A stretch of 33,806 nucleotides of DNA from a candidate division WOR-3 bacterium (GCA_903908785.1 CAIVTL010000278.1:1-33806); one strand, 5' to 3'; counted from the first letter of the stretch, positions 13,917-28,704 are shown. Numbers and translations are program-made. The notes: generated from the letters alone by a model not told the origin.

Positions 13917-13952
13917 TCCAACTCTCTTGGGCGCAGGATTCAGGAGGATATA

Positions 13953-14396
13953 GTGTCTAATAAAGCGATGAATTGTAGACAGGTGAAACGGCTGCTGCCT
14001 CCTTACCAAGACAAAGAGCTGTCGGGCAGGGCGCCGGACGAGATAGCTGCCCATCTGGCATCCTGCCCGGCCTGTCGCTCCGAACTGGAGGCGCTGACGG
14101 CGGATATCGGCCTACTCCAACAGGCCGGTGCGCCTGAGGTTACGCCGTTTCTTGCCACGCGGGTCATGGCCGAAATCCGGCAGCGGCATGTCGCGCCGCG
14201 CCGCGCCTTCCGGCCCGGCTGGGTGCTGAGTGTGGCGGCCGGCGTCATGCTGGTTGCTCTAAGCCTTGGCGTCGGCACGCTGGTCGGCTCGGGCCTGGCC
14301 CAGGGCAGTACCAGCGCTACCGGCGACGACATCTATGCTACCGCGACCGCCGACCCTTCGCTTGATACCTACCAGTCCCTGATGGGAGGCGAGTAA
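13953..14396 (+). CDS. Anti-sigma factor (zf-HC2, single-pass membrane)
   Basis: AGGAGG lies 5 nt upstream of GTG-13953. Has the H-x3-C-x2-C motif (AAHLASCPACRSEL) and one TM helix (VLSVAAGVMLVALSLGVG). It directly follows the ECF sigma gene. Confidence 0.75.
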   Translation: MSNKAMNCRQVKRLLPPYQDKELSGRAPDEIAAHLASCPACRSELEALTADIGLLQQAGAPEVTPFLATRVMAEIRQRHVAPRRAFRPGWVLSVAAGVMLVALSLGVGTLVGSGLAQGSTSATGDDIYATATADPSLDTYQSLMGGE

Positions 14397-14875
14397 TGCG
14401 CGGCCGATGGGTGGCCCTGGTTGCCGTGGCGTCGCTGGCGCTGAACGTGGCAGTGGTCGGGACCTACGCCTATCGCACCGCGCGGTGGCACGAGCGCCAC
14501 TCTCGATTCCCGGGCGTCAGGCGCGAACTCCGGGATAGCATCGGCGGCATGATGCGCCAGGCCGCGCCCCAAATCGAGAGTCTGTCCGGCGAACGCGAAC
14601 GGCTCCAGGCCGCGGTCATGGAGCTTGTTGGAAAGCCGGAACTGGACGAACCGAAGCTCGATTCGCTCTGCCGCGAGCAGGGACGGCTTGCGGCGGAATT
14701 GGCAATGGTGGTCTCCCGGAACATGCACCGCGTCGTGCAGGTGCTGCCGCCGGCAGAGCGCGAGCAGTTCCTGCGCGGGCCCGGGTCGCACCGGCGGCAC
14801 GGTTTGCACATGATGGGCGGCTTCGGCTCGCGCCGCGGCGTACCGGAAGCCCGGCCGGGACCAGATGGAGACTAG
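14396..14875 (+). CDS. Periplasmic Spy/CpxP-family-like protein (heavy-metal/envelope-stress sensor type)
   Basis: The start overlaps the anti-sigma stop (TAATG). It has a signal/anchor helix, then a helical, Arg/Glu-rich domain with an LPPAEREQF LTxxQ-like motif. Confidence 0.5.
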   Translation: MRGRWVALVAVASLALNVAVVGTYAYRTARWHERHSRFPGVRRELRDSIGGMMRQAAPQIESLSGERERLQAAVMELVGKPELDEPKLDSLCREQGRLAAELAMVVSRNMHRVVQVLPPAEREQFLRGPGSHRRHGLHMMGGFGSRRGVPEARPGPDGD

Positions 14876-14902
14876 AAGTTGAACCTAACCTGGAGAGATT
14901 AC

Positions 14903-15505
14903 ATGAAGAAAACAACACTGACTGCGATTGCGGTAGTAGCGCTTGCCGGCCTGATGTGGGCGCAACCCGGGCCGGGACCGGCGGCCGGCGGCCCGATGGG
15001 CGGACCCGGCATGCCGATGATGGAAAGGCCGGACCAACCGGCAATGCCCGGCATGGGCGGTCCGATGGGCATGATGGCCAACATGCCTGACATGACGCCG
15101 GAGCAGATGGAGAAATGCGACGCCATGCGGGTGGCGCACATGAAGACCGTACTGCCGATTCAGACCGACATCCAGGTCGCGGAAATCGAGCTGGACGCGC
15201 TCTGGCGCGCCGAGAAGCTTGACGCCAAGAAGATTGTCGCCAAGGTGAGCGAAATCGGCGGGCTCCGGCAGAAACTGGAACTCGCCATGGTCAACCACCG
15301 GATTGACATGTACAACCTGATGACCCCGGACCAGCAAAAGGCGATGCGCAAGATGCACATGGGTGCCGGCCGTGGTATGATGCGCGGCCAGGGCAAGGGT
15401 CGCGGCATGGGCCACGGCATGAAGGGCGGAATGAAAGGTGCCGGGCAGCAGGGACAGATGGGTCAGTGCGACCCGCAGAACTGCAAAGATTGCATGATGC
15501 ACTAG
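14903..15505 (+). CDS. Met/Gly/His-rich periplasmic CpxP/Spy/ZraP-like protein
   Basis: Signal peptide MKKTTLTAIAVVALAGLMWA. Two LTxxQ-like motifs (MTPEQ, MTPDQ). The Met-rich N-terminal tract and the Met/His/Cys-rich C-terminal tail (GMGHGMKGGMKG...CDPQNCKDCMMH) suggest metal binding. Confidence 0.55.
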   Translation: MKKTTLTAIAVVALAGLMWAQPGPGPAAGGPMGGPGMPMMERPDQPAMPGMGGPMGMMANMPDMTPEQMEKCDAMRVAHMKTVLPIQTDIQVAEIELDALWRAEKLDAKKIVAKVSEIGGLRQKLELAMVNHRIDMYNLMTPDQQKAMRKMHMGAGRGMMRGQGKGRGMGHGMKGGMKGAGQQGQMGQCDPQNCKDCMMH

Positions 15506-15540
15506 CTTCTGACTGGGGCTAGTGGTTTGGCTCGGTCAAT

Positions 15541-15568
15541 GCCGGGGCCTTCGGGCCCCGGCTTCTTC
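15541..15568 (+). terminator. Rho-independent terminator
   Basis: GCCGGGGCC-TTCG-GGCCCCGGC perfect 9-bp GC stem followed by TTCTTC, about 36 nt after the stop at 15505. Confidence 0.75.
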
Positions 15569-15573
15569 GAGAG

Positions 15574-15627
15574 GGCAAAGTCAGAGGCTAGAGGCTAGAG
15601 TGCAGAAGCTAGAACTGAGACTGGAAG
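15574..15627. repeat. STR block, about 7 x 7 bp (GGCAAAG TCAGAGG CTAGAGG CTAGAGT GCAGAAG CTAGAAC TGAGACT...)
   Basis: Same unit family as 1453-1494. Intergenic, just after the terminator. Confidence 0.85.
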
Positions 15628-15643
15628 TGCCCAAGTGTTCGAC

Positions 15644-15676
15644 GTTTAGGGTTTAGAGTTTGGGGTTTAGAGTTTG
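15644..15676. repeat. STR block (GTTTAGG GTTTAGAG TTTGGGG TTTAGAG TTTG)
   Basis: T/G-rich heptamers. Roughly the reverse-complement flavour of the CCCAAAA block at 27865. Confidence 0.8.
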
Positions 15677-15680
15677 TCCC

Positions 15681-15709
15681 TTGCTCTTGCGCCTGTGCTG
15701 CCGTAAACT
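15681..15709 (+). promoter_or_regulatory. Sigma70-like promoter (TTGCTC-17-TAAACT), 5 nt upstream of GTG-15715 (leaderless arrangement)
   Basis: Read directly from the sequence. No SD sequence lies between the -10 box and the start codon. Confidence 0.4.
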
Positions 15710-15714
15710 GGGAC

Positions 15715-16596
15715 GTGGCGGAAGCGATAGTCACCCTGAGGCCCGTGCTGCAGCTCGCGCTGCTCGTGGCGGTAATCTGGTTTGCGGCCCGGGTTCTGCG
15801 CTGGTTGCTGCTGGGCCGGGTCGGCCAGTTCGGCAAGCTGCTGATTTTCGGCGGGCTGGTTGGCGTCTATGCGCTGACAGTGGTGCTGACGGCGACGGGC
15901 GGACAGACGCCGTGGGCGCCGGTCATGTTCCTGCTGCTGCAGTTCTCGCCGATGAAGGCGCTGATAGTGGTGGTTTCCGTGCTGATGGTCTGGCTGATTG
16001 CCCGCGAGTCATTCATGCCGATGCCGCACCAGCTTGGATTCCTGCTTGATAGCCCGGTTCGGCGGCTGCTTGCCCCGGCTGACGCGGTCTTTCACCGGAT
16101 GGCGCTCGGGCCGGGCATGCGCGTGGTCGAAGTCGGGTGCGGAACCGGGCATCTTTCCGGCGACGTGGCGCGCAGAATCGAGCCGGGCGGCATACTCTTC
16201 TGCGTTGACATCCGGCCGGTGATGGTTGACAAGACCCTGGAACGAGTCGAGAAACAGGGCCTGCACAACGTCCTCGGCTTTGCCGTCCCGGCCGACAAGC
16301 TGCCGCTCGACATCTACGACATTGACCTCGTGTTCCTCGTGCACGTGCTGGGCGAGATTTCGGGCCGGCTGCCCGCCCTGCGTGAGGCGTTGCGGGTCCT
16401 GCGACCCGGCGGCGCGCTCTCCGTCACCGAGGCCATGATTGACCCGCACTACCGATTCCGCAACGACGTTGTGAAACTCTGCCGGCAGGCCGGGTTCGAG
16501 CCGGTCTCAATCGAAGGCAGCCTGTTCTACTATACGGCCACGTTCCGCAAGCCGCAGGCCAAGGAACCGCTCGGCTATGCTCCGCGGTTCGACTGA
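15715..16596 (+). CDS. Class I SAM-dependent methyltransferase with N-terminal 3-TM anchor
   Basis: VVEVGCGTGHL (motif I), LFCVDI and LRPGGALSV (post-I/II motifs). The hydrophobic N-terminus spans about 100 aa. Confidence 0.7.
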   Translation: MAEAIVTLRPVLQLALLVAVIWFAARVLRWLLLGRVGQFGKLLIFGGLVGVYALTVVLTATGGQTPWAPVMFLLLQFSPMKALIVVVSVLMVWLIARESFMPMPHQLGFLLDSPVRRLLAPADAVFHRMALGPGMRVVEVGCGTGHLSGDVARRIEPGGILFCVDIRPVMVDKTLERVEKQGLHNVLGFAVPADKLPLDIYDIDLVFLVHVLGEISGRLPALREALRVLRPGGALSVTEAMIDPHYRFRNDVVKLCRQAGFEPVSIEGSLFYYTATFRKPQAKEPLGYAPRFD

Positions 16597-16602
16597 CGGG
16601 CG

Positions 16603-17556
16603 ATGATGCGAGCGACTAACCACAGATGGACACTGATGCGCTGTCGGACAGGGGCCGCAGCGGCCAACACAGATGGTTCTCCCGGGGACATCTGCCCGGT
16701 TATCCGTGTTTATCGGTGGTTCACCCTGTCCGTTTCGTGTCTTCGTGGCGTCCATGTCGGTCTTTGGGTCGCGTTGGCAGCAGCCTGCACGTTCGGGGCC
16801 GAGGCGCGGGTGAAGGTGCGCGTGCGCGACGGCGACACCGGGCAGTGGCTCGCGAACGCCAAGGTTAAAGCCGGGGAGCGAGTCTTCTTTACCGACAGCC
16901 TCGGCGAGTGCATCATACCGGCACTCGCGGGCCAGCGTCTTCTCCTGACGACCTCGATTGGAAACGGCTATCCCGCCACCGACTCGGTGCTTGCCACTGT
17001 CCCGGACGCGAGGCTGGTGGTCAAGCTGTATGGCAGGCAGCCGCGCACCGCGATAGGATTCGTCAGGGACGGCAGCACCGGCAAGCCGCTGGCAAGGGCT
17101 TTGGTCAGAATCGAGGGCGCCGCGGCGACAGCAAAGGCCGACTCGGCGGGCATGTACGTCATTCCCTTTCCACCGGGCGACCGTGAACTCATTGCCGCGC
17201 TTCCGGGCTTTCGCGGATTCCCGAGGAACCTGTCGGTCAAGGCCGGGGACACGCTCGCGGTTGACCTGCCGCTGTACGATACTTCGCTCGCGGTCGGCGA
17301 GATTGCGGGTCGGGTGGAGGTGCAGGGCCTGGGCGCGGCCTGCGGGGCGAATGTAACGGTCGAAGGCACGCGGCTCGGCACCGCCTCGGACCAGAACGGC
17401 GACTACATCATCACCGGCGTGCCGGCCGGCTCATACCGCGTCGTGTTCTCCTACGCGGGGTGCAAGAAGGCGATGAAGGTCGTGAGCGTCATGGCATGGG
17501 AATCGCTAGTCCTGAATGTCCAGCTTGAGCAGCGCCTGCCGACGACCAAACGCTGA
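16603..17556 (+). CDS. Carboxypeptidase-regulatory-like (CarboxypepD_reg) repeat protein
   Basis: Three repeats of the type G.V.D..TG.PL..A.V...G....TD..G.Y.I..L..G.Y, for example GRVEVQG...VTVEGTRLGTASDQNGDYIITGVPAGSYRVVF. The N-terminal 40 codons, including all ATG starts, lie inside the 107-bp mosaic element, so the start is uncertain. Confidence 0.6.
   Translation: MMRATNHRWTLMRCRTGAAAANTDGSPGDICPVIRVYRWFTLSVSCLRGVHVGLWVALAAACTFGAEARVKVRVRDGDTGQWLANAKVKAGERVFFTDSLGECIIPALAGQRLLLTTSIGNGYPATDSVLATVPDARLVVKLYGRQPRTAIGFVRDGSTGKPLARALVRIEGAAATAKADSAGMYVIPFPPGDRELIAALPGFRGFPRNLSVKAGDTLAVDLPLYDTSLAVGEIAGRVEVQGLGAACGANVTVEGTRLGTASDQNGDYIITGVPAGSYRVVFSYAGCKKAMKVVSVMAWESLVLNVQLEQRLPTTKR
16617..16723. 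repeat. 107-bp mosaic palindromic element, copy 1
   Basis: Ends TAACCACAGAT...ATCGGTGGTTCA form an imperfect terminal inverted repeat. Internal palindromes CTGTCGGACAG and GGCCGCAGCGGCC. It shares all modules with 27903-28009. Confidence 0.85.
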
Positions 17557-17702
17557 CGCTACCCGCGGCGCGCGCTCAAGCCGCGAAAGCTCGACGCAAA
17601 ATTCCTCTGGAAACTCGCCGGAATGTTACTTCCAACGCGTTCTAGATTAGAAGTTCAAGAGTGTGCTCAAGTGTGTAGACAAATGGACCGGCAAATGTAT
17701 GT

Positions 17703-17880
17703 TCAAGATGGTACGTCATCGGTTCGCGACAAGGACGCGTGCTTGCTCGCGTCGAAGTTTGCGGCGTCGTTCGGTTCGAAGTTCGTGGAAATGTTCTCCT
17801 CGATGCTCTTCGCAAAATATGCTAAGAAGTCTCGTTCAAGGTCTGTTTGGCAGGCATGTCGAAACCAGCCTAGGGAGTAG
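17703..17880 (-). pseudogene. Possible gene remnant in a low-GC spacer
   Basis: The minus-strand frame reads ...QTDLERDFLAYFAKSIEENISTNFEPNDAANFDASKHASLSRTDDVPS*. The composition is protein-like, but no start codon lies between the neighbouring gene end and this stretch. Local GC is visibly lower than the surroundings. Confidence 0.2.
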
Positions 17881-17935
17881 GGGAGGGTAGAAGGCGGGAA
17901 TTGTGAATAGTGAATTGAGAATAGGGGAGTTAGGA
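17871..17935. repeat. STR block, about 9 x 7 bp (TAGGGAG TAGGGGA GGGTAGA ... AATTGTG AATAGTG AATTGAG AATAGGG)
   Basis: Intergenic, in the low-GC spacer. Confidence 0.75.
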
Positions 17936-17956
17936 CACTCCTCGGCAGGCGAAGGA

Positions 17957-17976
17957 ATATGTAGTATACTACATAT
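17957..17976. repeat. Perfect 20-bp palindrome ATATGTAGTATACTACATAT
   Basis: Read directly. AT-rich, about 34 nt beyond the 3' end (plus-strand nt 18010) of the minus-strand gene. Confidence 0.9.
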
Positions 17977-18009
17977 ACGGAGGCCGGGAATGAGCCGCGA
18001 ATTCCGCGC

Positions 18010-19812
18010 TTACCGCTGCTGCCTTCCGGCCCAGCCGGACCGGGCGTTGTCGTGGTTGTAGGTTGGCCAGGCGGTGTTGGCCAAGTGCGCCTTGCCGATG
18101 GCCACGCAGTAGACGGAGAAGAAACCGGCCAGGTAGACGTTCCCGTCAGGCCCGACCAGCGGAGTCGTGTCGTCGTCCCCTTCGTCTCTGGGCGCGCGGC
18201 CGCGCGGCGTCTCCCCGACGGAGTCTTCGATGCTGAACGTCCAAAGAACGTCGCCATTCCACGAGAAACAGGTGAGCTCGTCGACCTCACTGCAATAGGT
18301 CAGCACCGTGCTGTCGGACAGAGCACACGGCGATGACATGCTGGCATTGCCATAGGGAATCCCTGCTGCCCAGACCCAGTGTCCGTCGGAATCATAGCAG
18401 TAAAGCCGTCCGTCGTCAGACTGGAAGTAGACACGGTCGTCATATCCGACCGTGACCCCGCCTTGGTACATCAAGACCGAGACGGACGCGCTCCACGCTA
18501 ACGTCCCATCCTGGTTGAAGCAGAGCAAGTGGCCGTCGTTGTCCGCGATTATCACGCGGCCGCGACTGTCTATGACAGGTGCGTAAAGCCAATCAGTACG
18601 TCCTATGTGAGTCGTGTCCTGCCATAGCACGGTGCCGTTGGTGTCCAACGCCGTGATGCCAGCCCGTGACGTGTAGCCCTTGGTGCAGCCAGCGTAGATG
18701 GTGCCGTTTGCACCGACAGCCACGCCGTATCCAGGTTCTGATGGCACGAGCGACAGTGGCACGCGCCATTGGATGTGCGCGGAATCGCCGCAGTCCTGCA
18801 ACTTGAGTACGAACGTCGTGTCCTGAGTGAAATAGGGCGTCGCCACGTACAGCGCACCATCGGGCCCGATCGTCGGTGTGCAATTACAGACTCGCAGTTT
18901 GATGCTCCAGACCCGGCTACCGGTCCGCGTGTCGAGACAGTAGATTTGACCGCTGTCGTCCGTCACTTGGTACAGTCTGCTGCCATCGATACCGAGGCTT
19001 GGTCCAAAGAAGATGGCTTGATTCGACTCCGAAGTCCATCGGGACATGCCGTTCGTCCAGATGCAGGCTGTACGGTCGTATGCACCCAAGTAGAGGACAC
19101 GCTCGCCGTCCAACTCGCCCATCGCCGGCGAGCCGGTGGAGCCGAGTTCCTCCGAATCCGGCGTGTACCACAACACGGCGACCGGGCTGACGTTGACGAA
19201 CTTCGCACCGGCGATTGGGTTAACCATGCTGCCCTTGTCCTTCAGTAGGACGTGGATGACATGGCGGCCGGTGGTTTGCCACTTCACGGAGTCTGTTACC
19301 GTGCTGCCGCTGGCGACGAACGGGGACCAACCCGAGGTCATGCTGTCGCCCCATATGAACTTCACGCTCACGCTGTCGCCGTCCGGGTCCATAACCGTAA
19401 CTGAAGGCCGATACCAACGGTCAACTGCCCAGCGCGCGAAGCCCGTGACCGTGTCCGCCAGTTGCGGCGGCGTTGAGGCGTGGAACAGGCATTCGTCCGA
19501 CCATTTGGAGACGCGGCCGGCTTCGTTGCGGGCCTTGACTCTGATGTGAAAGGTGCCGGTATCAGGGAAGGAACGAGGATAGCAGGCAGTGTCGCCGCTC
19601 GCGAAGTAGCCGGTCGTTGTCGAGTCGCCGTTGCCCCAGTCGAAGATGTACTGCACCTTCAGGCCGTTCGGGTCGGTCGCGGCGGTGAAGAAGCAGAGCG
19701 AGTCGTCGAGGATATCGGCCCAGGGCGCAGCCGGCGTCAGCGGAGCCTTCTTTGCACAGCCGACGAGAGCGACCAGCGCGCCGGTCAGAATCAGGAGCGC
19801 GTATTTGGACAC
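18010..19812 (-). CDS. PKD-like + PQQ/BamB-like beta-propeller lipoprotein (paralog 1)
   Basis: GGGGAGG RBS and a GTG start. Signal peptide with lipobox LVGC. Two PKD-like modules (YIFDWGNGDSTT, DPDGDSVSVKFIWGD). Repeated 'DG.L.W' propeller blades. C-terminus WPTYNHDNARSGWAGRQQR. Confidence 0.75.
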   Translation of the reverse strand: MSKYALLILTGALVALVGCAKKAPLTPAAPWADILDDSLCFFTAATDPNGLKVQYIFDWGNGDSTTTGYFASGDTACYPRSFPDTGTFHIRVKARNEAGRVSKWSDECLFHASTPPQLADTVTGFARWAVDRWYRPSVTVMDPDGDSVSVKFIWGDSMTSGWSPFVASGSTVTDSVKWQTTGRHVIHVLLKDKGSMVNPIAGAKFVNVSPVAVLWYTPDSEELGSTGSPAMGELDGERVLYLGAYDRTACIWTNGMSRWTSESNQAIFFGPSLGIDGSRLYQVTDDSGQIYCLDTRTGSRVWSIKLRVCNCTPTIGPDGALYVATPYFTQDTTFVLKLQDCGDSAHIQWRVPLSLVPSEPGYGVAVGANGTIYAGCTKGYTSRAGITALDTNGTVLWQDTTHIGRTDWLYAPVIDSRGRVIIADNDGHLLCFNQDGTLAWSASVSVLMYQGGVTVGYDDRVYFQSDDGRLYCYDSDGHWVWAAGIPYGNASMSSPCALSDSTVLTYCSEVDELTCFSWNGDVLWTFSIEDSVGETPRGRAPRDEGDDDTTPLVGPDGNVYLAGFFSVYCVAIGKAHLANTAWPTYNHDNARSGWAGRQQR

Positions 19813-19824
19813 GGTTTCCTCCCC

Positions 19825-21546
19825 TTAGTGTCTTCCCGCCCAGCCGGAGTGGGCATTGTCGTGGTTGTAAGTCGGCCAGGCGGTCGGGGCGAGACCAGAA
19901 TTGCCAATGGTCAGGCAGCAGAGCCCATAGTCGTAGCACAGGTAGACGTTCCCATCCGGAGCGACGGCCGGCGTCGGTGCTTCGTCGCCTTCGTCATGCC
20001 CGCCTTGCCTGCGGCCGGCAGTTTCCAGCGAATCCCAGATGGAGAATTCCCATGCGACCAGCCCATTCCAGCCGACGCAGGTTATGTAGTCTTCACTGTT
20101 GATGGACAGCACCGAGCTGTCTGCCAGCACGCAGAGGTTGTCCTCGTAGCCAGGGAAATTCTCCGTCTGGACATCCCAGACGAATCGGCCGTCGGAGTCG
20201 AGGCAGTACAGCGAATAGTCGGATTCGCTCTGGATGTAGATTCGGTCGTCATAGCCGACCGAGATGCCTCCACCGTACAGCAGCGTGGCTTCGGCTGCCC
20301 AGGCCAGCGAACCATCCGGGTTGATGCAGACCAGCGAGTCCATGGCGCTGGCGACAATCAGCCTCTCCCGGCTGTCGAGCGCCGGACAAGACCGGTAGCC
20401 GCCGCCTTTATTCATGTGGCTCGTATCCTGCCAGAACAGCGCCCCGGCAGTGTCCAACGCGAACGCCCCTGCATCGCGTCGGCCCTCGCCTCCGTAGTTG
20501 ACGCCGTAGACAGTGCCGGCCGCGCCCAGCACGACACTGGTGCAGGAACCGCGCCCTGCGTGGTATGTCCACTCCACGCGCGCCGAGTCTCCCAGGTCTC
20601 GAACTCGGGTCAGGTCGCCTTCCCGGGTGACATATACCTGGCCGAACGGGCCGAGGACGGGCGTACAGTCGCCCGGTTGCTGGTCCAGGCGCCAGATGAC
20701 TGCGCCGGTCCCAACATCGAAGCATGTCAGCCCGCGGTTGTCGTCCGCGACGTACAGGCGCGAGCCGTCGGCGCTGACCGACGGCGCAAAGCGCGCGGAC
20801 ATCGGGTCGAGCGGGAGTTTCCAGCGCGTGGTTCCGTCCGCATTGACGCACCAGACATAGTCGTAGTACACACCGCAGACCACGAGATGGCCGTCGGCTG
20901 TGCCGAGCACCGGCGAGCACTCGCTTTCGACCTCCGAGTTGGTCCACAGCACGGCCATCGGGCTTACGGTTACGGTCTTGCGGAGGTCCGGGCAGGCAAC
21001 CATCGAACCCCGGTCCTTGACCACGACCCTTACTGACTGTGGCCCGGTTACCGTCCACTTGCATGAGTCGGTGACGGTCGTACCGGTGGGTACAAAGGGG
21101 GTCCAGGTTGCGCCGGGCAGGTCGCCCCAGATGAACTTCACGCTCACACTGTCGCCGTCCGGGTCCGTGACCCTGACCGATGCGCGGTACCAGCGGTCAA
21201 CGGCCCAGCGCTCCGGGCCGGCGATACTGTCCTCGGCCGTCGGTGGTTGAGAGGAGCGAAACGACAACGGCGCCGACCAGGAGGAATAGAAGCCCTTGTC
21301 GTTGATGGCTATGGCCCTTACCGAGTGAATCCCGGTCACGGCGAACGCGTGCGTGCCGTAGATGGTTTCGCCGCTCGGGACGGCGGATGTCGTCGTCCTG
21401 CTCCCGTCACCCCAGTCGAACACGTATTTCACCTTTAGGCCGTTGGGGTCGGTCGTCGTGGTGAAGAAGCAGAGCGAATCGCCGTATACGTCGGCCCAGG
21501 GCTGAACCGGCGTGAGCGGATACCGCTTGGAACAGCCGGCGAACAC
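19825..21546 (-). CDS. PKD-like + beta-propeller lipoprotein (paralog 2); true start probably upstream at about 21585
   Basis: Same architecture as paralog 1, with stretches nearly identical at the nucleotide level (19355-19390 vs 21131-21166). The GTG-21546 model starts at MFAGC, in the middle of a lipobox. The signal peptide IKYLVPFTLALLAVFAGC is encoded upstream in frame, after AAGGAGG. Confidence 0.7.
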   Translation of the reverse strand: MFAGCSKRYPLTPVQPWADVYGDSLCFFTTTTDPNGLKVKYVFDWGDGSRTTTSAVPSGETIYGTHAFAVTGIHSVRAIAINDKGFYSSWSAPLSFRSSQPPTAEDSIAGPERWAVDRWYRASVRVTDPDGDSVSVKFIWGDLPGATWTPFVPTGTTVTDSCKWTVTGPQSVRVVVKDRGSMVACPDLRKTVTVSPMAVLWTNSEVESECSPVLGTADGHLVVCGVYYDYVWCVNADGTTRWKLPLDPMSARFAPSVSADGSRLYVADDNRGLTCFDVGTGAVIWRLDQQPGDCTPVLGPFGQVYVTREGDLTRVRDLGDSARVEWTYHAGRGSCTSVVLGAAGTVYGVNYGGEGRRDAGAFALDTAGALFWQDTSHMNKGGGYRSCPALDSRERLIVASAMDSLVCINPDGSLAWAAEATLLYGGGISVGYDDRIYIQSESDYSLYCLDSDGRFVWDVQTENFPGYEDNLCVLADSSVLSINSEDYITCVGWNGLVAWEFSIWDSLETAGRRQGGHDEGDEAPTPAVAPDGNVYLCYDYGLCCLTIGNSGLAPTAWPTYNHDNAHSGWAGRH

Positions 21547-21623
21547 GGCGAGCAGGGCGAGCGTGAACGGAACCAGATACTTTATCGCGGCCTCCTTGGT
21601 GACCAGGGTATCATCTATGCAAG

Positions 21624-21652
21624 GTTCTAACTGAAACAGGGGAAGAAGTCAA
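21624..21652 (-). promoter_or_regulatory. Weak sigma70-like promoter on the minus strand (TTGACT-17-TAGAAC) for paralog 2/1
   Basis: Located in the divergent intergenic region 21547-21744. The -10 box lacks the final T. Confidence 0.25.
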
Positions 21653-21668
21653 GGGAGACAGCCGCCGC

Positions 21669-21697
21669 TTGACATCCGTGCCGGGCTGCCGCATTAT
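21669..21697 (+). promoter_or_regulatory. Sigma70-like promoter (TTGACA-17-CATTAT) for paralogs 3-5
   Basis: Consensus -35 box, about 47 nt upstream of ATG-21745. Confidence 0.45.
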
Positions 21698-21744
21698 GTT
21701 CTAGCGGCCAGGGGTATTCTCCGGCCGCAGATTGCGAGGCGAAC

Positions 21745-23304
21745 ATGAAGTCACGATTCGTTGTCCTCATCGTTCTGGCAGCGGCTTTGCTGCTCTCCAC
21801 CGGCGCGGGCTGCGGCAGGAAGCAGTATGCGCCGGTAGTGGACTCGGCCGTGGTCGCGCCGTATTACCCCGACTTTGACAGCGCAAGGCTTACCGTGTGC
21901 GCGCACGACCCGGACGGCGACAGCATTCGGCTGCGCGTCGAGTGGGGTGACAACAGCGACACACTCACGGCTCTCTACGCCAGTCCGTGCCGCGCCGAAT
22001 TGAAGCACGGGTATTCGGATGCAAGTCGGGCCACGGTGATTGTTGCGGCCCTCGACATGAACAACGTCTCCATTCCGGAAACGACGACCGTGCCGGTCGA
22101 GCCGTTTGGCATAGTACAGTGGTGGTGGAAGAGCACTGACCCCAACAACGGGGACGTGGGGTTCATCACGTCGCCGGTCGTAGCCAGTGACGGCATCGTC
22201 GAGCGCGTGTATGCCGGCTGTGATGACTACAAGTTCTACTCCAGCCGGACCAGTGACCGCAGGGGCGAGAAGAGCGCAACCACCAAAGAGCCCGAGTGTC
22301 TATTCAACGGCCATCCCGGCCTCTGCGCCGCCACCGGCCATATCATCGTCGGCAGCGAAGAAGGTGAGCTTTATGCCCTGGAAATCGACGGACTGGCTAA
22401 GGCATGGCAGTGGCCGGATAGCGCCTCGGAGCACGGGACCGGCCTCCAGTGGGGTGCGCCGGCGTTCAACGGTAACAGGATCTACATCGGCCACGAAGGC
22501 CCCCAGGGCTACGACAGCCTGCTCCTGTTTGAGGATGCCGGTGCGCAGGGTAACCGGGTTGCCGCCTATAGCGTCCACGCCGTGGTGATTGACGCGCCGG
22601 TAATCGACGCCGCCGGCAACGTCATCTTCGGCAACGACTCCGGCTACCTCATCAAGATTGACGCCAACCTCAATTCGCCCATCTGGCGCTCCAAACTGCT
22701 GCCTAACGGCGAGGTCCACGGCCCGATTATCGGCGGCGACGGGACCATCTATTGCGCCTCCGATTACTTCCATCTCTTTGCGATTGACCCGGCGACCGGC
22801 ACCGTGAAATCGGGCTGGCCACTGACGCTGAACGGCGACGTGTTTCGACCGGTACTTGGCCAGTCGGCCATCTTCGCCGGCAGCGGCTTCGGCGAGGTTT
22901 ATTCCATCAATCCGGCAACCGGCGGCATCAACTGGACGGACCTGCTCAGTCCGTACCACGGGTTCAGCACTGCCCCAGTCGTCGCGGCCAATGGCTACGT
23001 GTACTTCCAGGACGACGCCGATGTGCTCTACTGTGTGAACCAGGCCGACGGCACGCTCATCTGGTCCTGCAACTGCCCGCTCTACCTCCCACGCGCCGGC
23101 GACTCACACCGACCGAGGAGGACGGGGCTGACCGACTACCGCCCGAACCTGTCAATCTGCGCCAACGGTAACATCATCGTTATAGGCGCTGACGCCTGCT
23201 ACTGCGTCGCCGGCTATCCCGAAGGTCCGCTCGACCCGCTCGCGTCCTGGCCCAAGTGGCAGCACGACTTGTACAACACCGGCAACGTGGACGGAGGAAG
23301 GTAG
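21745..23304 (+). CDS. PKD-like + beta-propeller lipoprotein (paralog 3)
   Basis: Signal peptide ending in ...STGAGC. Has DPDGDSIRLRVEWGDNSD. Propeller repeats (ADGTLIWS etc.). C-terminus WPKWQHDLYNTGNVDGGR. Confidence 0.75.
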   Translation: MKSRFVVLIVLAAALLLSTGAGCGRKQYAPVVDSAVVAPYYPDFDSARLTVCAHDPDGDSIRLRVEWGDNSDTLTALYASPCRAELKHGYSDASRATVIVAALDMNNVSIPETTTVPVEPFGIVQWWWKSTDPNNGDVGFITSPVVASDGIVERVYAGCDDYKFYSSRTSDRRGEKSATTKEPECLFNGHPGLCAATGHIIVGSEEGELYALEIDGLAKAWQWPDSASEHGTGLQWGAPAFNGNRIYIGHEGPQGYDSLLLFEDAGAQGNRVAAYSVHAVVIDAPVIDAAGNVIFGNDSGYLIKIDANLNSPIWRSKLLPNGEVHGPIIGGDGTIYCASDYFHLFAIDPATGTVKSGWPLTLNGDVFRPVLGQSAIFAGSGFGEVYSINPATGGINWTDLLSPYHGFSTAPVVAANGYVYFQDDADVLYCVNQADGTLIWSCNCPLYLPRAGDSHRPRRTGLTDYRPNLSICANGNIIVIGADACYCVAGYPEGPLDPLASWPKWQHDLYNTGNVDGGR

Positions 23305-23310
23305 GCGAAG

Positions 23311-25050
23311 GTGAAATTACGGCTGCGTTCCTTGTCAGTCCTTGCCGCAGCCTTGGCGCTCCTGTGCGCCGGCTGCGACGAGCACGCGCGTCTCGGCGTT
23401 TGGATAGTCTCCGGGCCGACCCAGGTCGCCCGCGGCGCCATGGCGACCTACGTCGTAAGAAGCGGGTATAGTGGATTCTTCTCGTCTGGTGGAACACTCC
23501 GCTACCGTGTGGAATGGGGCGACAGCATGACCGCGACCAGTGACCCTCGCTCAATTGGTGACACGGTCCTGTTCACTCACGCGTGGCGCAAGTCAGGGAC
23601 ATACACAGTGACGGCTTTGGCCTACGGCATCCCTGATTCGCGTTCGTACCCGCGGTACGTTGTCGTGTCGGATTCCAACGACCCGGTGATTGACTCGGCA
23701 CAGTTCTACTCCGACTGGCGGCCGGCAGAACTTGTCGCCGTCGCGCACGCCCCGGCCGGTGAGAGCCTCAGGCTTGCCGTAGCGTGGGGCGACGGCCAGA
23801 ACGAAACGACCGGGTTCCTGCCCAGCCCCTGCCGACTCAGCGCAATTCACCGCTATGCAGACGCCGCGCACGTGCAGGTCGTGGTCAGGGCCCTGGACGA
23901 GTCCGGCAGGATGTCATTTCCGGACACTCTCTCGGGCTCGGTCTCGACGTATGGGGAGGTCACAAGCTTCAACCTCGGCGACTACTCCGGCTCGCCGGTC
24001 ATCGCTCTCAACGGCTCCGATGAAAACGTCTACCTCATCGGTTCAGACGGTTTCTACGGCCTGCGCCCCGGAGGAGCTAAATACATCTGTCTTGGAGCTT
24101 TCGTTGGCCATCCTTCGTTCTCCAGTCTGACCGCACACGTCTACATCGGCTCGGACGATGGCCGGCTGCATGCTTTTACCCCGACGCTCGGGCTTGCCTG
24201 GAGTTACCCGTCCGACGAATCGATTACCGGCCCGGAGTGGGGGGCGGCCACGGTCAATGGCAGCGCGCTGTATGTGCCGTGCGCGAACGAGAGCATCTAC
24301 TATCTCATTGACAATGGCGCGTCGGTCATCCGTGGGGCTGTGTTCGGCGCTCAGGCTGCGCTGGTTGACGCCCCGGTGATTGACGCCGGTGGCAACGTCT
24401 ACTTTGGGACTGACTCAGGTTACCTGTACAAACTGACCAGCAGCCTTTTCTTCCTCTGGCGCGCACGCCTGCAGGCGGGCGGCGTTATTCACGGCCCGGT
24501 GCTCGACGCCGACGGCACGGTCTACTGTTCATCAGACTCGAACCGGCTCTTTGCCGTGAACCCGGCCGACGGGTCGGTGAAATGGACTGCGGCGCTGGAT
24601 GGTGCCGGCCCGCGACCTGTCGTCGGTTCCGACGGCGTCTATGTCGGCACTTCGACCGGCCATTTCTACCGGCTCGACAAGACCACCGGCGCGATAGCCT
24701 GGGAGAAGCAATTCGAGGGTGCCGAGTTTGCCTCCTGTCCGATACTCGTCGCCTATAGCGTCTACGCGGTCACGACGAGCGACGTTCTCTACTCTCTCTA
24801 CCGGCAGGATGGCTCCACTAGCTGGGTCTGCAATTGCCCGAAGTACCTGCCCAGACAGGGTCGCTACAGGCCACTGCATCTGACCGACTACTACCCAAGC
24901 CCGACCGTGAACTCGTCCGGCGAGGTGTACGTGGTCGGCTCAGAAGCCCTCTACAAGCTCAACACCTACGGCCAACTCGACGCCGCGTCCCCCTGGCCCA
25001 AGTGGCAGCACGACCGCTATAACACCGGCCACGTCGGCGGAGGAAGGTAG
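23311..25050 (+). CDS. PKD-like + beta-propeller lipoprotein (paralog 4)
   Basis: The GTG start lies 6 nt after the upstream stop. Signal peptide LLCAGC. YRVEWGDSMT and LRLAVAWGDGQNETT modules. Propeller repeats. C-terminus WPKWQHDRYNTGHVGGGR. Confidence 0.75.
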   Translation: MKLRLRSLSVLAAALALLCAGCDEHARLGVWIVSGPTQVARGAMATYVVRSGYSGFFSSGGTLRYRVEWGDSMTATSDPRSIGDTVLFTHAWRKSGTYTVTALAYGIPDSRSYPRYVVVSDSNDPVIDSAQFYSDWRPAELVAVAHAPAGESLRLAVAWGDGQNETTGFLPSPCRLSAIHRYADAAHVQVVVRALDESGRMSFPDTLSGSVSTYGEVTSFNLGDYSGSPVIALNGSDENVYLIGSDGFYGLRPGGAKYICLGAFVGHPSFSSLTAHVYIGSDDGRLHAFTPTLGLAWSYPSDESITGPEWGAATVNGSALYVPCANESIYYLIDNGASVIRGAVFGAQAALVDAPVIDAGGNVYFGTDSGYLYKLTSSLFFLWRARLQAGGVIHGPVLDADGTVYCSSDSNRLFAVNPADGSVKWTAALDGAGPRPVVGSDGVYVGTSTGHFYRLDKTTGAIAWEKQFEGAEFASCPILVAYSVYAVTTSDVLYSLYRQDGSTSWVCNCPKYLPRQGRYRPLHLTDYYPSPTVNSSGEVYVVGSEALYKLNTYGQLDAASPWPKWQHDRYNTGHVGGGR

Positions 25051-26907
25051 ATGAACATGAAGTCACGACTTGCGGCTCTCACCGCAGCGGCCGCGACGCT
25101 TCTGATTATCGCAGGCGCAAGTTGCCAACGGACGATTAGGCCACCTGTGTTCGTGTCAGTCCCGGAGACTGTCTTTGCCGGTGAAGTCGCGCATCTGCGC
25201 CTCGTGACGTACGTGCTCGGCTACCAGAGCACCGGCTACGTCATGGACTGGGGCGATACCGTTGAGACTGACTCCGGCCGGTTCCCGCTCGGCGACACAG
25301 GGACCGTCTCCCACGTGTGGTCTGCGCCCGGCGTCAAGCAGGTGCGGGCGCGGGCATTCCCTTTCGCCGACCCGACGCTGCTGACGGACTGGTCTGAACG
25401 TGAAACCGTAGTCGTCGTTCCGGGCGGTGAAGGTGCGCCGGTGATAGACACTGTCTTCGTCGACCCGCCGGTCGCGGTAAGAGGCGTGGAAGGGTCCCTA
25501 ACCGTCGTGGCTCACGACCCAGGCGGCGACAGCATCAGGATAATCCTTGACTGGGGCGACGGCACCGACACGACGACTAACTTCTTTCCCAGCCCATGCA
25601 GCGTCGTGGTCGGTCACACATTTGGACAGGTTGAGACCGCCAGGGTTCTCATTATCGCCCAAGACTGGAAGGGTGCGTCGTCATTGCCCGAAACCGTCTC
25701 TATCCCGGTCGGCACTGCCGGCGGCGTCAACTGGTGGTGGCAGAGCAGCGACCCCGAGAACCCGGGCGAGCCATGCACGACTTCGCCGCTCATTGTCACC
25801 GTCGGCGGCGACGAACGCCTGTTCTTTAGCGACGAGGGCGACGGCAAGTTCTACTCCATCCGTGCTAGCGGCTTTGGGGGTGAGAAGTCAGCGACCACTC
25901 GCTGGCCGGGAGGCACTTTCTCCGGCCATCCGGCGTTCTGCGAGGCGACCCAGCACATCATCATCGGCAGCGACGAAGGCGAACTCTACGCCCTGAAGGT
26001 CGACGGGCTTGGCAAGGACTGGCATTGGCCGGACAATCCTGAATCGCTACTGACTGGTCTCGAATGGGGCGCACCGGCAATCAAGGGCAACCGGCTCTAC
26101 GTCCCGCATGAAGACGACAGCCTGTTTCTATTCGAGGACGTCGGCCTACAGGGCAACCGCGTTGCCGCTTACCCGGTCAACGCCTCGGTGGTTGATGCGC
26201 CGGTGATTGACGCACAGGGCAACGTCTACTTCGGCACGGACTCGGGCTACCTGTACAAGATGGGCCCGGAACTGGACACCGTGTACTGGCGTACGCGCCT
26301 GCTGGCCAACGGCGAGATTCACGGCCCGGTCATCGGCGGTGACGGGGCCGTCTATTGCGCGTCCGACCAGTCCCGCGTCTACGCGATTGACCCAGTGAGC
26401 GGAACCCCGCTATGGACCGCAACACTGGACGGCGACGTATCACGCTTGGCCTTGGGCCAGTCGGCCATCTTCGTCGGCAGCGGCTCCGGCCACGTCTATT
26501 CCATAGACCCGGCAACCGGTGAAAAGAACTGGGAGAAGCAGCTCACCCTGACCGCAGGGTTCAGTACAACGCCCATCGTCGCGGCTAACGGCTATGTGTA
26601 CTTTCAGGATGACGACGACGTGCTATACTGCCTGAACCAGGCCGACGGCACCATCATCTGGTACTGCAAGTGCACGGACTACCTGCCGCGCGCAGGTGGC
26701 GGCGGTCCACACCGGCCGAGAAAGACACAGTTGTTCGACTACGCGCCGAACCCGACGATTCTGGCCAACGGCAACATCATTGTCTGCGGTGACGATGCAC
26801 TCTACTGTGTGGCCGGCTATCCCGAAGGTCCACTCGATGGTGCCGCCCCTTGGCCCAAGTGGCAGCATGACGTGTACAACACCGGATACGTGGGCGGAGG
26901 AAGGTAG
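25051..26907 (+). CDS. PKD-like + beta-propeller lipoprotein (paralog 5)
   Basis: The ATG abuts the upstream TAG. Signal peptide ...IIAGASC. YVMDWGDTVE and IRIILDWGDGTDTTT modules. It is the closest paralog of 21745-23304. C-terminus WPKWQHDVYNTGYVGGGR. Confidence 0.75.
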   Translation: MNMKSRLAALTAAAATLLIIAGASCQRTIRPPVFVSVPETVFAGEVAHLRLVTYVLGYQSTGYVMDWGDTVETDSGRFPLGDTGTVSHVWSAPGVKQVRARAFPFADPTLLTDWSERETVVVVPGGEGAPVIDTVFVDPPVAVRGVEGSLTVVAHDPGGDSIRIILDWGDGTDTTTNFFPSPCSVVVGHTFGQVETARVLIIAQDWKGASSLPETVSIPVGTAGGVNWWWQSSDPENPGEPCTTSPLIVTVGGDERLFFSDEGDGKFYSIRASGFGGEKSATTRWPGGTFSGHPAFCEATQHIIIGSDEGELYALKVDGLGKDWHWPDNPESLLTGLEWGAPAIKGNRLYVPHEDDSLFLFEDVGLQGNRVAAYPVNASVVDAPVIDAQGNVYFGTDSGYLYKMGPELDTVYWRTRLLANGEIHGPVIGGDGAVYCASDQSRVYAIDPVSGTPLWTATLDGDVSRLALGQSAIFVGSGSGHVYSIDPATGEKNWEKQLTLTAGFSTTPIVAANGYVYFQDDDDVLYCLNQADGTIIWYCKCTDYLPRAGGGGPHRPRKTQLFDYAPNPTILANGNIIVCGDDALYCVAGYPEGPLDGAAPWPKWQHDVYNTGYVGGGR

Positions 26908-26982: not shown

Positions 26983-27483
26983 TTGGTCTACGACGCCACG
27001 GTGCTGTTCTGTGACAGATTCGTGGACAAGCGCTCACGCACGCATGACCAGATGGTGCAGGCGGCGCGAAGCGGCGTGCAGAATATCGCGGAGGGCAGCA
27101 TGGCTTCGGCGACGTCGAAGAGGACAGAGCTGAAGCTGACCGGCGTTGCGCGGGCCAGCCTGGAGGAGTTGCTCCTGGACTTCGAGGATTTCCTGCGCCA
27201 GCGCGGGCTCAAGCTCTGGAGCAAAGATGACCCACGCGCTTTGGCAGTGAGGCGGCGCTATCAGTCAGACCGGTCGGACTTGTCGGACAGAGAGGCGCAA
27301 GCGCAAGCGAGGAAGCGCAAGCAGAGGCCAAGAATCCGATGCTTGAGCTTGGGCTTGAGCTTGGGTAAGCAGCCCCCGCTGCTGCACCGGCAGATGCAGC
27401 AGTTGGAGCAGGCGTTCCTCGCCGAGGGCGGGTTCACCGAGCGGCTGTACCGCGAGCGACGGGCGCGTCGGCAGAACCAGTAG
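26983..27483 (+). CDS. Four-helix-bundle protein with 'suffix' domain (formerly '23S rRNA intervening-sequence protein' family); N-terminus lacks a canonical start
   Basis: VYDATVLFCDRFV...MVQAARSGVQNIAEGS and the C-terminal QQLEQAFLAEGGFTERLYRERRARR are family-like. Conserved-looking residues (PPHGGYRKLRSFQAAQL) continue upstream to the TAG at 26905-26907 with no ATG/GTG/TTG before TTG-26983. Three repeat blocks are inserted between the two domains. Confidence 0.55.
   Translation: MVYDATVLFCDRFVDKRSRTHDQMVQAARSGVQNIAEGSMASATSKRTELKLTGVARASLEELLLDFEDFLRQRGLKLWSKDDPRALAVRRRYQSDRSDLSDREAQAQARKRKQRPRIRCLSLGLSLGKQPPLLHRQMQQLEQAFLAEGGFTERLYRERRARRQNQ
27262..27365. repeat. Three abutting STR blocks: 3 x 9 bp (CAGTCAGAC CGGTCGGAC TTGTCGGAC), GCGCAA-type hexamers, and 2 x 12 bp (GCTTGAGCTTGG)
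   Basis: All lie in frame inside the four-helix-bundle gene and encode QSDRSDLSDREAQAQARKRKQRPRIRCLSLGLSLG. Confidence 0.85.
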
Positions 27484-27531: not shown

Positions 27532-28704
27532 GTGACTGAACAACATAAGCCGGTCGCCGTTGCCCTGCTTTCCGGCGGGCTGGATTCGACGCTGGCGGCA
27601 AAGGTGATTCTGGAGCAGGGTATCACGGTTATCGGTATCAACTTCGCCGGGGCATATTGCCCGCGGCCGCTTGCGGGCAAGAGCCGCGCGGAGAAGGCGG
27701 CGGAGAAGCTGGGCATCGAACTCGTGACCCTGCCGATTGACGCGGAGTTCATCGCGATGGTAAAGAACCCGCGACACGGCCGGGGCAGGAACATGAACCC
27801 GTGCATTGACTGCCATACGTTGATGATACGCAAGGCGTGGGCATGGGGACAGACCGAGCCGGAATCCAAAACCCAAAACCCAAAACCTAAGAGCCAGAGA
27901 GATGAACCACCGATGCACTGTCGGACAGGGGCCTCGGCGGCCAACACGGATAACCGGGCAGATGTCTCCGAGAAAACTATCTGTGTTCATCAGTGTCCAT
28001 CTGTGGTTAGCTGGTATGACCGAGCGGATTTCGTCATCACCGGCGAGGTGCTGGGGCAGCGGCCGATGTCGCAGAACCGGAACGCGCTTAACACAGTGGC
28101 CAGCTGGTCCGGCGTGGGAGAGCGGCTGCTTCGGCCGATGTCGGCGAAACTGCTCAACCCAACTGCGCCTGAGCAGGAGGGCCTGGTTGACCGCGAACGG
28201 TTGCTGAACATCGAGGGCAGGCAGCGGAATCGCCAGATGGCGCTGGCCGAGAAGTATGGCATCAAGGACTACCCGTCGCCGGCCGGCGGGTGTCTCTTGA
28301 CCGAGAAGGTCTATTCGAAGCGGCTGGCCGAGGCGTTCGACCACGGTGAGGATTCGCTTGAGATAGTCGAACTGCTTTCACTGGGCAGGCATTTCCGCCT
28401 GCCTTCCGGCGCGCGGTTGGTCGTGGGGCGGGACGAGAGGGAGAACGACGAACTGCTGCGGCGTAAACCGGCGGGCGCGGTCGTGATTGACGCGGGCGAT
28501 TTGCCGGGACCAGTGGGAATACTCGCGAAGGGATCAAGGGATCAAGGGATCGAGGGATCGAGTGACGAAGCGTTGGCCGCGAGGATTTGCGCGCGGTTCA
28601 GCGACAAGCGGAAAGAGAAACTCGCGCGGGTCGTGATTGCGGGCGAGGCGGTTGACGTCGAGCCCGCGAGTGAAGAGGAATCGGCCCGGCTACTGATTGC
28701 GTGA
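27532..28704 (+). CDS. PP-loop (adenine-nucleotide alpha-hydrolase) ATPase, MnmA/ThiI-like thiolation-type enzyme
   Basis: VALLSGGLDST PP-loop close to the N-terminus. NPCIDCH, FVITGEVLGQRPMSQ and YPSPAGGCLLTE are also present. An in-frame foreign segment of about 50 aa (repeat block plus the 107-bp mosaic element, 27865-28009) and an octamer repeat (28530-28561) interrupt the protein. Confidence 0.6.
   Translation: MTEQHKPVAVALLSGGLDSTLAAKVILEQGITVIGINFAGAYCPRPLAGKSRAEKAAEKLGIELVTLPIDAEFIAMVKNPRHGRGRNMNPCIDCHTLMIRKAWAWGQTEPESKTQNPKPKSQRDEPPMHCRTGASAANTDNRADVSEKTICVHQCPSVVSWYDRADFVITGEVLGQRPMSQNRNALNTVASWSGVGERLLRPMSAKLLNPTAPEQEGLVDRERLLNIEGRQRNRQMALAEKYGIKDYPSPAGGCLLTEKVYSKRLAEAFDHGEDSLEIVELLSLGRHFRLPSGARLVVGRDERENDELLRRKPAGAVVIDAGDLPGPVGILAKGSRDQGIEGSSDEALAARICARFSDKRKEKLARVVIAGEAVDVEPASEEESARLLIA
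27865..27899. repeat. STR block, 5 x 7 bp (TCCAAAA CCCAAAA CCCAAAA CCTAAGA GCCAGAG)
   Basis: In frame in the PP-loop ATPase gene (SKTQNPKPKSQR). It directly abuts mosaic element copy 2. Confidence 0.85.
27903..28009. repeat. 107-bp mosaic palindromic element, copy 2 (inverted, with one module transposed)
   Basis: The reverse complement aligns to copy 1 end to end. The exception is the 27-bp module CGCTGTCGGACAGGGGCCGCAGCGGCC, which sits on the other side of the 45-bp AACAC...GTGTT module and is flipped. Confidence 0.85.
28530..28561. repeat. STR block, 4 x 8 bp (GGGATCAA x2, GGGATCGA x2)
   Basis: In frame in the PP-loop ATPase gene, encoding GSRDQGIEGS. Confidence 0.9.

Follow-up and report, generated by a model that had tools for sequence, protein, structure and literature searches.

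What are five paralogous genes for putative lipoproteins, diverging from a single short spacer, doing in the genome of an uncultured bacterium of candidate division WOR-3 from freshwater sediment, and how did they get there? The array occupies positions 18010-26907 of a 33,806-nt stretch of DNA (GCA_903908785.1, CAIVTL010000278.1:1-33806), the whole of which we call the window. An initial annotation, made from the sequence alone, described proteins with a signal peptide ending in a cysteine, PKD-like modules, a propeller of the PQQ/BamB type, and a shared C-terminal motif, and proposed that they are surface proteins shaped by recent duplication or gene conversion and by diversifying selection. 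The answer that we favor, with somewhat better than even confidence, is that the genes belong to a WOR-3 multigene family in which a lipid-anchored, PKD-like stalk carries a non-catalytic propeller, and that this family evolves by the birth and death of copies accompanied by segmental recombination. The five open reading frames (ORFs; 519-618 amino acids [aa]) were confirmed, two on the minus strand and three on the plus strand, in divergent orientation, and they fall into two groups, A and B. The features are the following.

18010-19812, minus strand: P1, group A, 600 aa; putative lipobox ALVGC, two predicted PKD-like beta-sandwiches, a predicted eight-bladed PQQ-like propeller, and the tail AWPTYNHDNARSGWAGRQQR.
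19355-19390, minus strand: 36-nt tract in P1, encoding DPDGDSVSVKFI of PKD module 2; its partner in P2 is at 21131-21166.
19825-21585, minus strand: P2, group A, 586 aa if read from an ATA codon at 21585, or 573 aa from a GTG codon at 21546.
21586-21744, no strand: divergent spacer between the two operons, 159 bp when P2 is taken from the ATA.
21745-23304, plus strand: P3, group B, 519 aa; one PKD-like module and a propeller.
23311-25050, plus strand: P4, group B, 579 aa; two PKD-like modules and a propeller; a clean ortholog of L006/L007_p584, a gene of relatives described below.
25051-26907, plus strand: P5, group B, 618 aa; two PKD-like modules and a propeller.

The divergence from an intergenic region had been recognized correctly, but the size of that region had been put at 200 bp, which is too long if P2 starts at the ATA. 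A separate assembly, ERZ1426811, has five genes of identical sizes in this neighborhood on a 15.6-kb contig, and one freshwater-sediment run yielded contigs that match the window with zero differences at a depth of about 5-8x. Rfam and tRNA scans of the window gave no matches.

The architecture of the proteins is consistent among the copies. All five match PQQ_2 (PF13360) with 65.0-92.8 bits (77.8 for P1 and 92.8 for P2), for a cut-off of 27.6, and the WGD core typical of the N-terminal modules occurs twice in P1, P2, P4, and P5 and once in P3. These motifs and matches, together with the structure models, bear out the description of one or two PKD-like modules followed by a PQQ/BamB-like propeller. 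The Pfam models of PKD (PF00801/PF18911) score 25.3 bits in P1 against a threshold of 23.5, reach 17.8-18.2 bits in P2 and P4, and find nothing in P3 and P5. When searched against the sequences of the PDB, the family profile matches solved PKD domains (4xed, E value of 5.6e-10; ColH, 4.5e-6). Since P1 alone passes the Pfam threshold, “PKD-like” is the safe term for these modules. The AlphaFold2 models of P1 (predicted local distance difference test [pLDDT] of 85.1, from 48 sequences) and of P5 (86.7, from an alignment of 70 sequences) share one plan, a signal helix followed by two beta-sandwich domains and a propeller. DSSP assigns to the propeller of both models seven full four-strand blades and a closing blade, to which the C-terminus contributes two strands and the N-terminus one. 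The propeller is thus predicted to be eight-bladed, which supplies the blade count that the initial annotation had left to structure modeling.

What kind of propeller is this? The best natural matches of Foldseek in the PDB are the eight-bladed YxaL (template modeling score TMt of 0.74-0.76) and BamB (TMt of 0.75-0.78), and the profile matches in the PDB also include the Methanococcus PQQ-like propeller 3hxj, YxaL, chains named “cell surface protein,” and BamB. By model, the TMt is 0.74 for P1 on YxaL and 0.75-0.78 for P5 on YxaL and BamB. YxaL of Bacillus velezensis (PDB 7dxn) superposes with a root mean square deviation of 3.5-4.0 A at 20-22% identity. Like the array proteins, it is exported, has blade repeats of the type A-x-D-x-x-TG-x-x-x-W, and has no known catalytic site. 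It differs from them in being a secreted, single-domain, single-copy protein of a Gram-positive bacterium, found outside arrays and devoid of a PKD stalk and a lipobox. BamB (YfgL), of the beta-barrel assembly machinery (BAM) complex, is also a lipoprotein with an eight-bladed PQQ-like propeller, and its profile E values are 1e-25 to 1e-29. However, BamB is a single-domain protein of about 380 aa that binds the POTRA domains of BamA, whereas the array proteins have 519-618 aa, PKD-like domains, and an extra conserved tail. Database annotation pipelines name relatives of the array “BamB.” The BamB equivalog models TIGR03300 and NF008351 score only 16-65.5 bits in our proteins (best scores of 65.5 and 56), far under the curated cut-offs of 285.2 and 423. 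We therefore reject a BamB identity and consider the names given by the pipelines unsupported. A third likeness is to PDB 8pra, 8prd, and related chains, named “cell surface protein” by their depositors, which use the same blade repeat family (E values of 1e-17 to 1e-33) and presumably come from a Methanosarcina surface protein. Archaeal surface proteins of this kind combine PQQ-like propellers with PKD domains and come in multiple copies. Their anchoring differs from that of the array proteins, they are not known to have a bacterial lipobox, and many are far larger and contain more than one propeller.

The same searches bear on an enzymatic role. The array proteins could be PQQ (pyrroloquinoline quinone)-dependent dehydrogenases, or other propeller enzymes such as lyases or hydrolases, acting on extracellular substrates. 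Weak matches to PF01011 and TIGR03075 and faint matches to Beta-prop_CGLA point in this direction, as do tetrathionate hydrolase and virginiamycin B lyase, which rank low in the Foldseek results. We find it very improbable. The scores are 12.3-24.5 bits for PF01011, with a cut-off of 26.7, and 17-30 bits for TIGR03075, with a cut-off of 480, and on these cut-offs a quinoprotein identity is rejected. Moreover, the propellers span about 370 residues, compared with about 550-600 in quinoproteins, there are no cytochrome or PQQ-synthesis genes nearby, and the best structural matches are non-enzymatic propellers. A binding rather than an enzymatic role is what these comparisons suggest.

How old is the array? 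To place it, we compared it with loci of relatives on other metagenome contigs, numbered L001, L002, and so on (window genes carry the prefix W_ in such comparisons). Both subfamilies are almost confined to metagenome bins of candidate division WOR-3, for which we know of no cultured model organism, and there are several loci per bin. In the window, the array is preceded by genes for an extracytoplasmic function (ECF) sigma factor, a zf-HC2 anti-sigma factor, two Spy/CpxP-like Metal_resist proteins, a methyltransferase, and a CarboxypepD_reg protein (13151-17556), a block that accompanies the array in synteny also in L001, L002, and the second assembly. It is followed by a 23S-IVS-like gene, a ThiI/NFACT-R_2 gene, DUF3795, SMC, and FtsY. 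This neighborhood is kept in relatives, and the size of the array varies. At the syntenic locus there is one copy in L002 and L003, three in L001 (A on the minus strand, then two B on the plus strand), at least three on a 13.4-kb contig, five in the window, and at least seven in L007 together with L006 (two on the minus strand and at least five on the plus strand). Hence, the comparison of copy number across relatives that the initial annotation called for gives 1, 3, 5, or at least 7 copies at one site. A hidden Markov model (HMM) scan of all the fetched loci found that 1-3 copies per locus are typical, and the divergent pair of a minus-strand A and a plus-strand B gene recurs in L001, L021, L022, L038, and L007. 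The site has also received unrelated genes in relatives, which indicates that it is plastic: the divergent spacer of L007 contains a DUF6036-domain gene and a small upstream ORF, and L001 has an insertion encoding a 322-aa cysteine-rich protein. Between CarboxypepD_reg and the array of the window (17557-18009) we found no remnants of the genes that relatives have at that place.

The sequences themselves place the duplications far back. Amino acid identity is 49% between P1 and P2, 59% between P3 and P5, 44% for P3/P4 and P4/P5, and 25-29% between groups. P3 and P5 are indeed closest to each other in spite of P4 standing between them, as had been noticed, but the recent duplication or gene conversion proposed to explain this does not survive. 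In a joint tree, each of the five window genes pairs with a gene of another genome and never with a window paralog: P5 with L006_p616b (74% identity), P3 with L006_p542 (75%), P4 with p584 (72%), P2 with L007_m587 (60%), and P1 with orthologs at 61-78% (L001_m595, 64%; P0122, 78%). No 90-nt window of P3 and P5 exceeds 84% identity. With the ortholog tree and these sliding windows, a recent P3/P5 duplication can be rejected. The order of genes in L007/L006 is P3-like, P4-like, P3-like, P5-like, P5-like, and this order shows that the closeness of P3 and P5 is an inherited, ancestral structure of subfamilies. The near-identity of 19355-19390 and 21131-21166, with one mismatch in 36 nt, was confirmed. 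The tract is just as similar in comparisons between genomes: W_P2 and L001_m595 agree at 34 of 36 positions, L001_m595 and L007_m587 share at this site a 35-nt run with at most one mismatch, and paralogs of different genomes agree at 33-34 of 36. We therefore attribute it to conservation of the DPDGDSVSVKFIWGD motif and to GC-rich codon use, and reject gene conversion. The five copies are thus old paralogs.

Old paralogs can still exchange segments, and those of this family have done so. The recombination tests suggested for the array were strongest in the clade of P3 and P5. The pairwise homoplasy index (PHI), which spatially autocorrelated rates at such divergence can inflate, was 0.414 for the eight members of this clade, for an expectation of 0.488 +/- 0.003, and 0.319 for group A, for an expectation of 0.338 +/- 0.003 (P <= 0.001 in both, with 1000 permutations). 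Segment trees are incongruent with one another, and strongly supported. The nearest relative shifts along P3 and along P5; P4 and P1 keep a single ortholog throughout. For W_P3, alignment columns 21-190 (195 of 200 bootstraps) and 381-410 (189 of 200) give L007_p519 as the sister, and columns 411-470 give L006_p542 (200 of 200). W_P5 groups with p616b in columns 21-190 (199 of 200) and with the P3-type clade in columns 381-410 (185 of 200). L006 and L007, which come from two samples, share 6.9 kb at 99.86% identity and part within the first plus-strand gene (L006 2413, L007 5432); its versions of 616 and 519 aa differ in the N-terminal PKD portion and in the genes that lie upstream. This breakpoint is either a strain-level recombination event or an assembly chimera. 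Mosaic exchange among paralogs is thus real on the timescale of the family, and none is recent in the window. A contig of X4, a related lake-sediment run, joins position 21926 to 25551, from the PKD motif of P3 to its equivalent in P5, skipping 3624 nt. With a short side of 27 nt and 15 unmatched letters at the joint, it is too weak to be accepted as a P3/P5 deletion variant; it may be a chimera with this deletion or a contig from a related paralog.

How fast do the copies diverge, and under which selection? We used the pairwise method of Nei and Gojobori (NG86) for the ratio of nonsynonymous to synonymous substitution rates (dN/dS). In the comparison with L001, identity is 60-64% for the array proteins and dN/dS is 0.26-0.38, whereas the flanking FtsY, SMC, ThiI-like, DUF3795, and IVP proteins reach 86-93% at a dN/dS of 0.09-0.16. 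The upstream methyltransferase and CarboxypepD_reg genes are intermediate (dN/dS of about 0.30-0.32). The array proteins thus diverge several-fold faster than the products of flanking genes. Pairs of orthologs have dN/dS of 0.26-0.39 with dS of 0.44-1.0, and pairs of window paralogs have dN/dS of 0.34-0.47 with dS of 0.95-1.4, near saturation. In sliding windows of 40 codons, the ratio is mostly 0.1-0.6. It is about 1 or above in a few noisy windows (residues 98-177 and 276-315 of P3, and 220-260 of P2). In the comparison of P5 with p616b, the segment where dN peaks (residues 161-280) is also saturated in the proportion of synonymous differences (pS), which fits the replacement of a segment rather than selection on point mutations. 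Selection is therefore purifying but relaxed. We found no gene-wide positive selection, and the diversifying selection that had been proposed is not borne out.

The organization of the genes bears on whether the copies are used together or in turn. The gaps are of 12 nt between P2 and P1, 6 nt between P3 and P4, and 0 nt between P4 and P5, where the ATG of P5 abuts the stop codon of P4. The start of P4 is preceded by a purine-rich stretch resembling a Shine-Dalgarno (SD) sequence within the last codons of P3, and P5 has GGAGGA 6 nt upstream, in the GGGR codons of P4. The spacer contains a sigma-70-like site for the plus-strand operon (TTGACA-17-CATTAT, 21669-21697, plus strand, 10 of 12 matches). 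All five genes are full length and packed in operons, unlike silent cassettes. We found in the array no simple-sequence tracts of the kind used in phase variation, at 5' ends or promoters, and no invertible promoter, the spacer being flanked only by weak inverted repeats (71-82% complementary). The tight packing and the lack of phase-variation features argue for joint expression over switching, and the copies are probably co-expressed.

These observations bear directly on an alternative close to the first proposal, in which the products are variable surface receptors or adhesins under diversifying selection, with propeller faces that track substrates, partners, phages, or predators and an array that stores variants. 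Such a role would fit proteins that evolve fast relative to the flanks, genes that are mosaic and vary in copy number, variability that is highest in the D strands, the D-A loops, PKD1, and the first blades, the few windows with dN/dS near or above 1, and a locus that gathers unrelated insertions in relatives. Yet the gene-wide dN/dS stays at 0.26-0.47, the segments of high dN have saturated dS and thus look replaced, orthologs are kept across genomes, and the operon packing suggests that the genes are expressed jointly and not one at a time. The array shows no simple-sequence tracts, invertible promoter, or retroelement. Nor does anything tie it to phages, as had been suggested: PADLOC defense models gave no match at E <= 0.01 for any of the five proteins. 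We consider this alternative possible but doubtful. Loop conservation differs in no clean way between the top and bottom faces of the propeller. One could also imagine WOR-3-specific surface receptors whose stalk and propeller segments are swapped among paralogs and strains to obtain new binding specificities, with the A/B pair as a functional hetero-unit. We think this unlikely. If true, an uncultured phylum would possess a surface repertoire that varies through recombination.

Where do the proteins reside? A cysteine closes the signal segment without exception, in 70 of 70 sequences of group B and 48 of 48 of group A. The lipobox of group A is canonical (L-[VA]-G-C), and that of P4 (LLCAGC) is borderline. 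The signal peptide with cysteine attributed to all five proteins is therefore present in general, with the qualifications that P4 is a borderline case and that P2 has one only from its ATA start. These features suggest that the array proteins are lipidated. BtuG is a surface-exposed propeller lipoprotein of Bacteroides (PMC6143338), and BtuH-type partners carry Ig-like domains (PMC8941943). The working analogy is that of a lipid-anchored surface propeller capturing a ligand in a bacterium of the Fibrobacteres-Chlorobi-Bacteroidetes (FCB) group. BtuG is seven-bladed, belongs to an unrelated family, is encoded beside a TonB-dependent transporter, and has an acidic export signal. None of these (the seven-blade family, the adjacent transporter, the acidic signal) is present in the array.

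The other possible location is the periplasm, where the proteins could be BamB-like scaffolds for the assembly of outer membrane proteins or of the cell wall, with the paralogs split among clients. BamB, itself a lipoprotein, is among the closest solved folds, the residues that follow the lipobox cysteine are basic, and the conserved genes upstream (ECF sigma factor, anti-sigma factor, and two Spy/CpxP-like Metal_resist proteins) suggest an envelope-stress neighborhood. This block could be an envelope-stress unit regulating the array. The BamB equivalog models nevertheless fail by far. BamB lacks a PKD stalk and is normally single-copy and conserved, whereas the array has from 1 to at least 7 fast-diverging copies. 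In addition, one locus of the family (L004) lies in a different neighborhood, without ECF genes. We regard such scaffolds as rather unlikely but as a serious rival. For the location as such, we favor the cell surface over the periplasm, but only slightly. The preference comes from the fast divergence, the changes in copy number, the PKD stalks, and the kinship to proteins named cell surface proteins. Most likely, the array products are non-catalytic binding modules of the envelope, probably at the cell surface.

The C-terminal tail raises a separate question. The alignment confirmed that the five paralogs end with the same motif, WP-x-[WY]-x-HD-x(4)-G (WPxWxHDxxNTG), in which W, P, H, D, and G are invariant. 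The last 20 residues or so are the most conserved of the protein, with a column entropy of 0.78 compared with 1.57 for the propeller, and they have pLDDT below 50 in both models (P1 and P5). This combination of high conservation and low pLDDT led us to consider a C-terminal sorting signal. We rejected it as the main reading: there is no downstream transmembrane segment, and in multi-propeller proteins, such as one of L049, the motif is internal, after each propeller. A profile of the last blade and the tail, searched against 1.84 billion representatives, matched 311 clusters. In the best 150 of these 311, the match was C-terminal in 106, internal in 42, and N-terminal in 2. Proteins longer than 800 aa account for nearly all the internal matches, and many of them match in several places. 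In Acidobacteriota, propellers of about 400 aa end with ...SPWPKWQHDPANTGxxxxxF, and a protein of Verrucomicrobiales has the motif after each of its two propellers. The tail also resembles the C strand and the D-x-x-x-[ST]-G turn of internal blades (compare VYAIDPVSGTPLW). Its likeness to the blade repeat and its occurrence across propeller proteins point to a general closure element rather than a sorting signal. We suggest that it is a truncated blade repeat that closes the last blade with the N-terminal strand, as a general feature of PQQ-like propellers. In the window, the codons for GGGR and the stop (GGA GGA AGG TAG) of P3 (23293-23310) and P4 (25039-25050) hold the SD sequence of the next gene. 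Hence, the nucleotide conservation of the tail in tandem arrays may partly serve translational coupling.

P2 has an unusual start. The ORF from the GTG opens with MFAGC and has no hydrophobic region and no signal peptide. An in-frame ATA (21583-21585, minus strand), 39 nt upstream of the GTG and with AGGAGG 6 nt upstream of it, opens (M)KYLVPFTLALLAVFAGC. The ortholog P0145 has an ATG at the equivalent place and opens with MKYLVP (MKYLVPVVLVLIAALAGC). Since orthologs start with ATG at this site, the ancestral ATG has become ATA in P2. The ATA is identical in contigs of run X1, and P2 was likewise called as a protein of 573 aa in another assembly. It could be a rare non-canonical start; otherwise, P2 may be weakly expressed or at an early stage of decay.

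Taken together, these results lead us back to the multigene family with lipid-anchored stalks and non-catalytic propellers. The array consists of two divergent operons, P2-P1 and P3-P4-P5. Their products would be made with a lipoprotein signal peptide and then anchored by the N-terminal cysteine, and one or two PKD-like Ig domains would form a stalk bearing an eight-bladed propeller of the BamB/YxaL type as a binding platform. An old divergent pair, with A on the minus strand and B on the plus strand, would have expanded more in some lineages than in others, and its copies would then have diverged several-fold faster than their housekeeping neighbors, with most of the change in PKD modules, first blades, and outer loops.

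Several points weigh against this interpretation. The genes adjoining the array include no transporter, glycoside hydrolase, defense gene, or other partner that would hint at a ligand. Acidic residues after the cysteine are the surface-export signal of Bacteroidota, and here these residues are basic (AKK, SKR, GRK, and QRT), so that this rule gives surface exposure no support; a periplasmic location is nearly as likely as the surface. The closure role of the tail follows from sequence analogy and from its position in other proteins, not from the models, where its pLDDT is low. The ATA start of P2 may signal poor expression or decay, and none of the RNA sequencing runs searched contained the sequence. 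Finally, the NG86 dS of paralog pairs is near saturation, and the PHI values may be inflated as said above.

The surroundings of the array show further features. Directly downstream of P5, a gene at 26983-27483 encodes a four-helix bundle similar to 23S rRNA intervening-sequence proteins and is 90% identical to its counterpart in L001; its 3' part contains DNA rich in tandem repeats (27295-27411). Elsewhere in WOR-3, a gene for a conserved protein (about 342 aa, with signal peptide and DPDGD motif) stands ahead of the group B gene (e.g., L004 4534-5562 and L006 642-1673). After the group B gene comes a third, shorter subfamily, whose members of about 500 aa combine a single PKD module with a propeller and have the tail SAWPMFQHDxxNSGRAR (L004 7836-9323, with similar genes in L009, L013, L019, L027, L030, and L036). 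The window has neither of the two. A repeat of about 100 nt with terminal inverted repeats occurs twice, flanking the array region, at 16616-16725 and 27908-28010. Its terminus AACCACAGATGGACACTGATG is exact at 16618-16638 on the plus strand and at 27988-28008 on the minus strand, the two copies carry one internal module in opposite orientations, and the exact 21-mer was absent from all of 54 fetched loci searched for it. The second copy lies in frame within the ThiI/NFACT-R_2 gene (27532-28704), which encodes 390 aa in the window and 336-350 aa in relatives. The greater length and the in-frame repeat make it look like an insertion resembling a miniature inverted-repeat transposable element (MITE) that is translated within the protein.

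What, then, does the locus mean? The evolutionary part of the initial annotation was only half correct: this is a dynamic family whose members recombine, but the duplications lie far back and no diversifying selection has been demonstrated. Relatives differ in the number of copies at a single syntenic position, which makes the locus a clean case, in nature, of birth-and-death evolution combined with segmental recombination. Beyond this, it is an ordinary paralog array, representing a new, lineage-restricted family within the known class of PQQ-like propellers, and nothing points to a new kind of system. Our literature searches on WOR-3 propeller and PKD proteins found no paper on the family. 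Recording it as a separate family of fast-evolving, lineage-restricted PKD-propeller lipoproteins avoids the wrong “BamB” annotation, and the array marks a likely module of envelope or surface interaction in these sediment bacteria.

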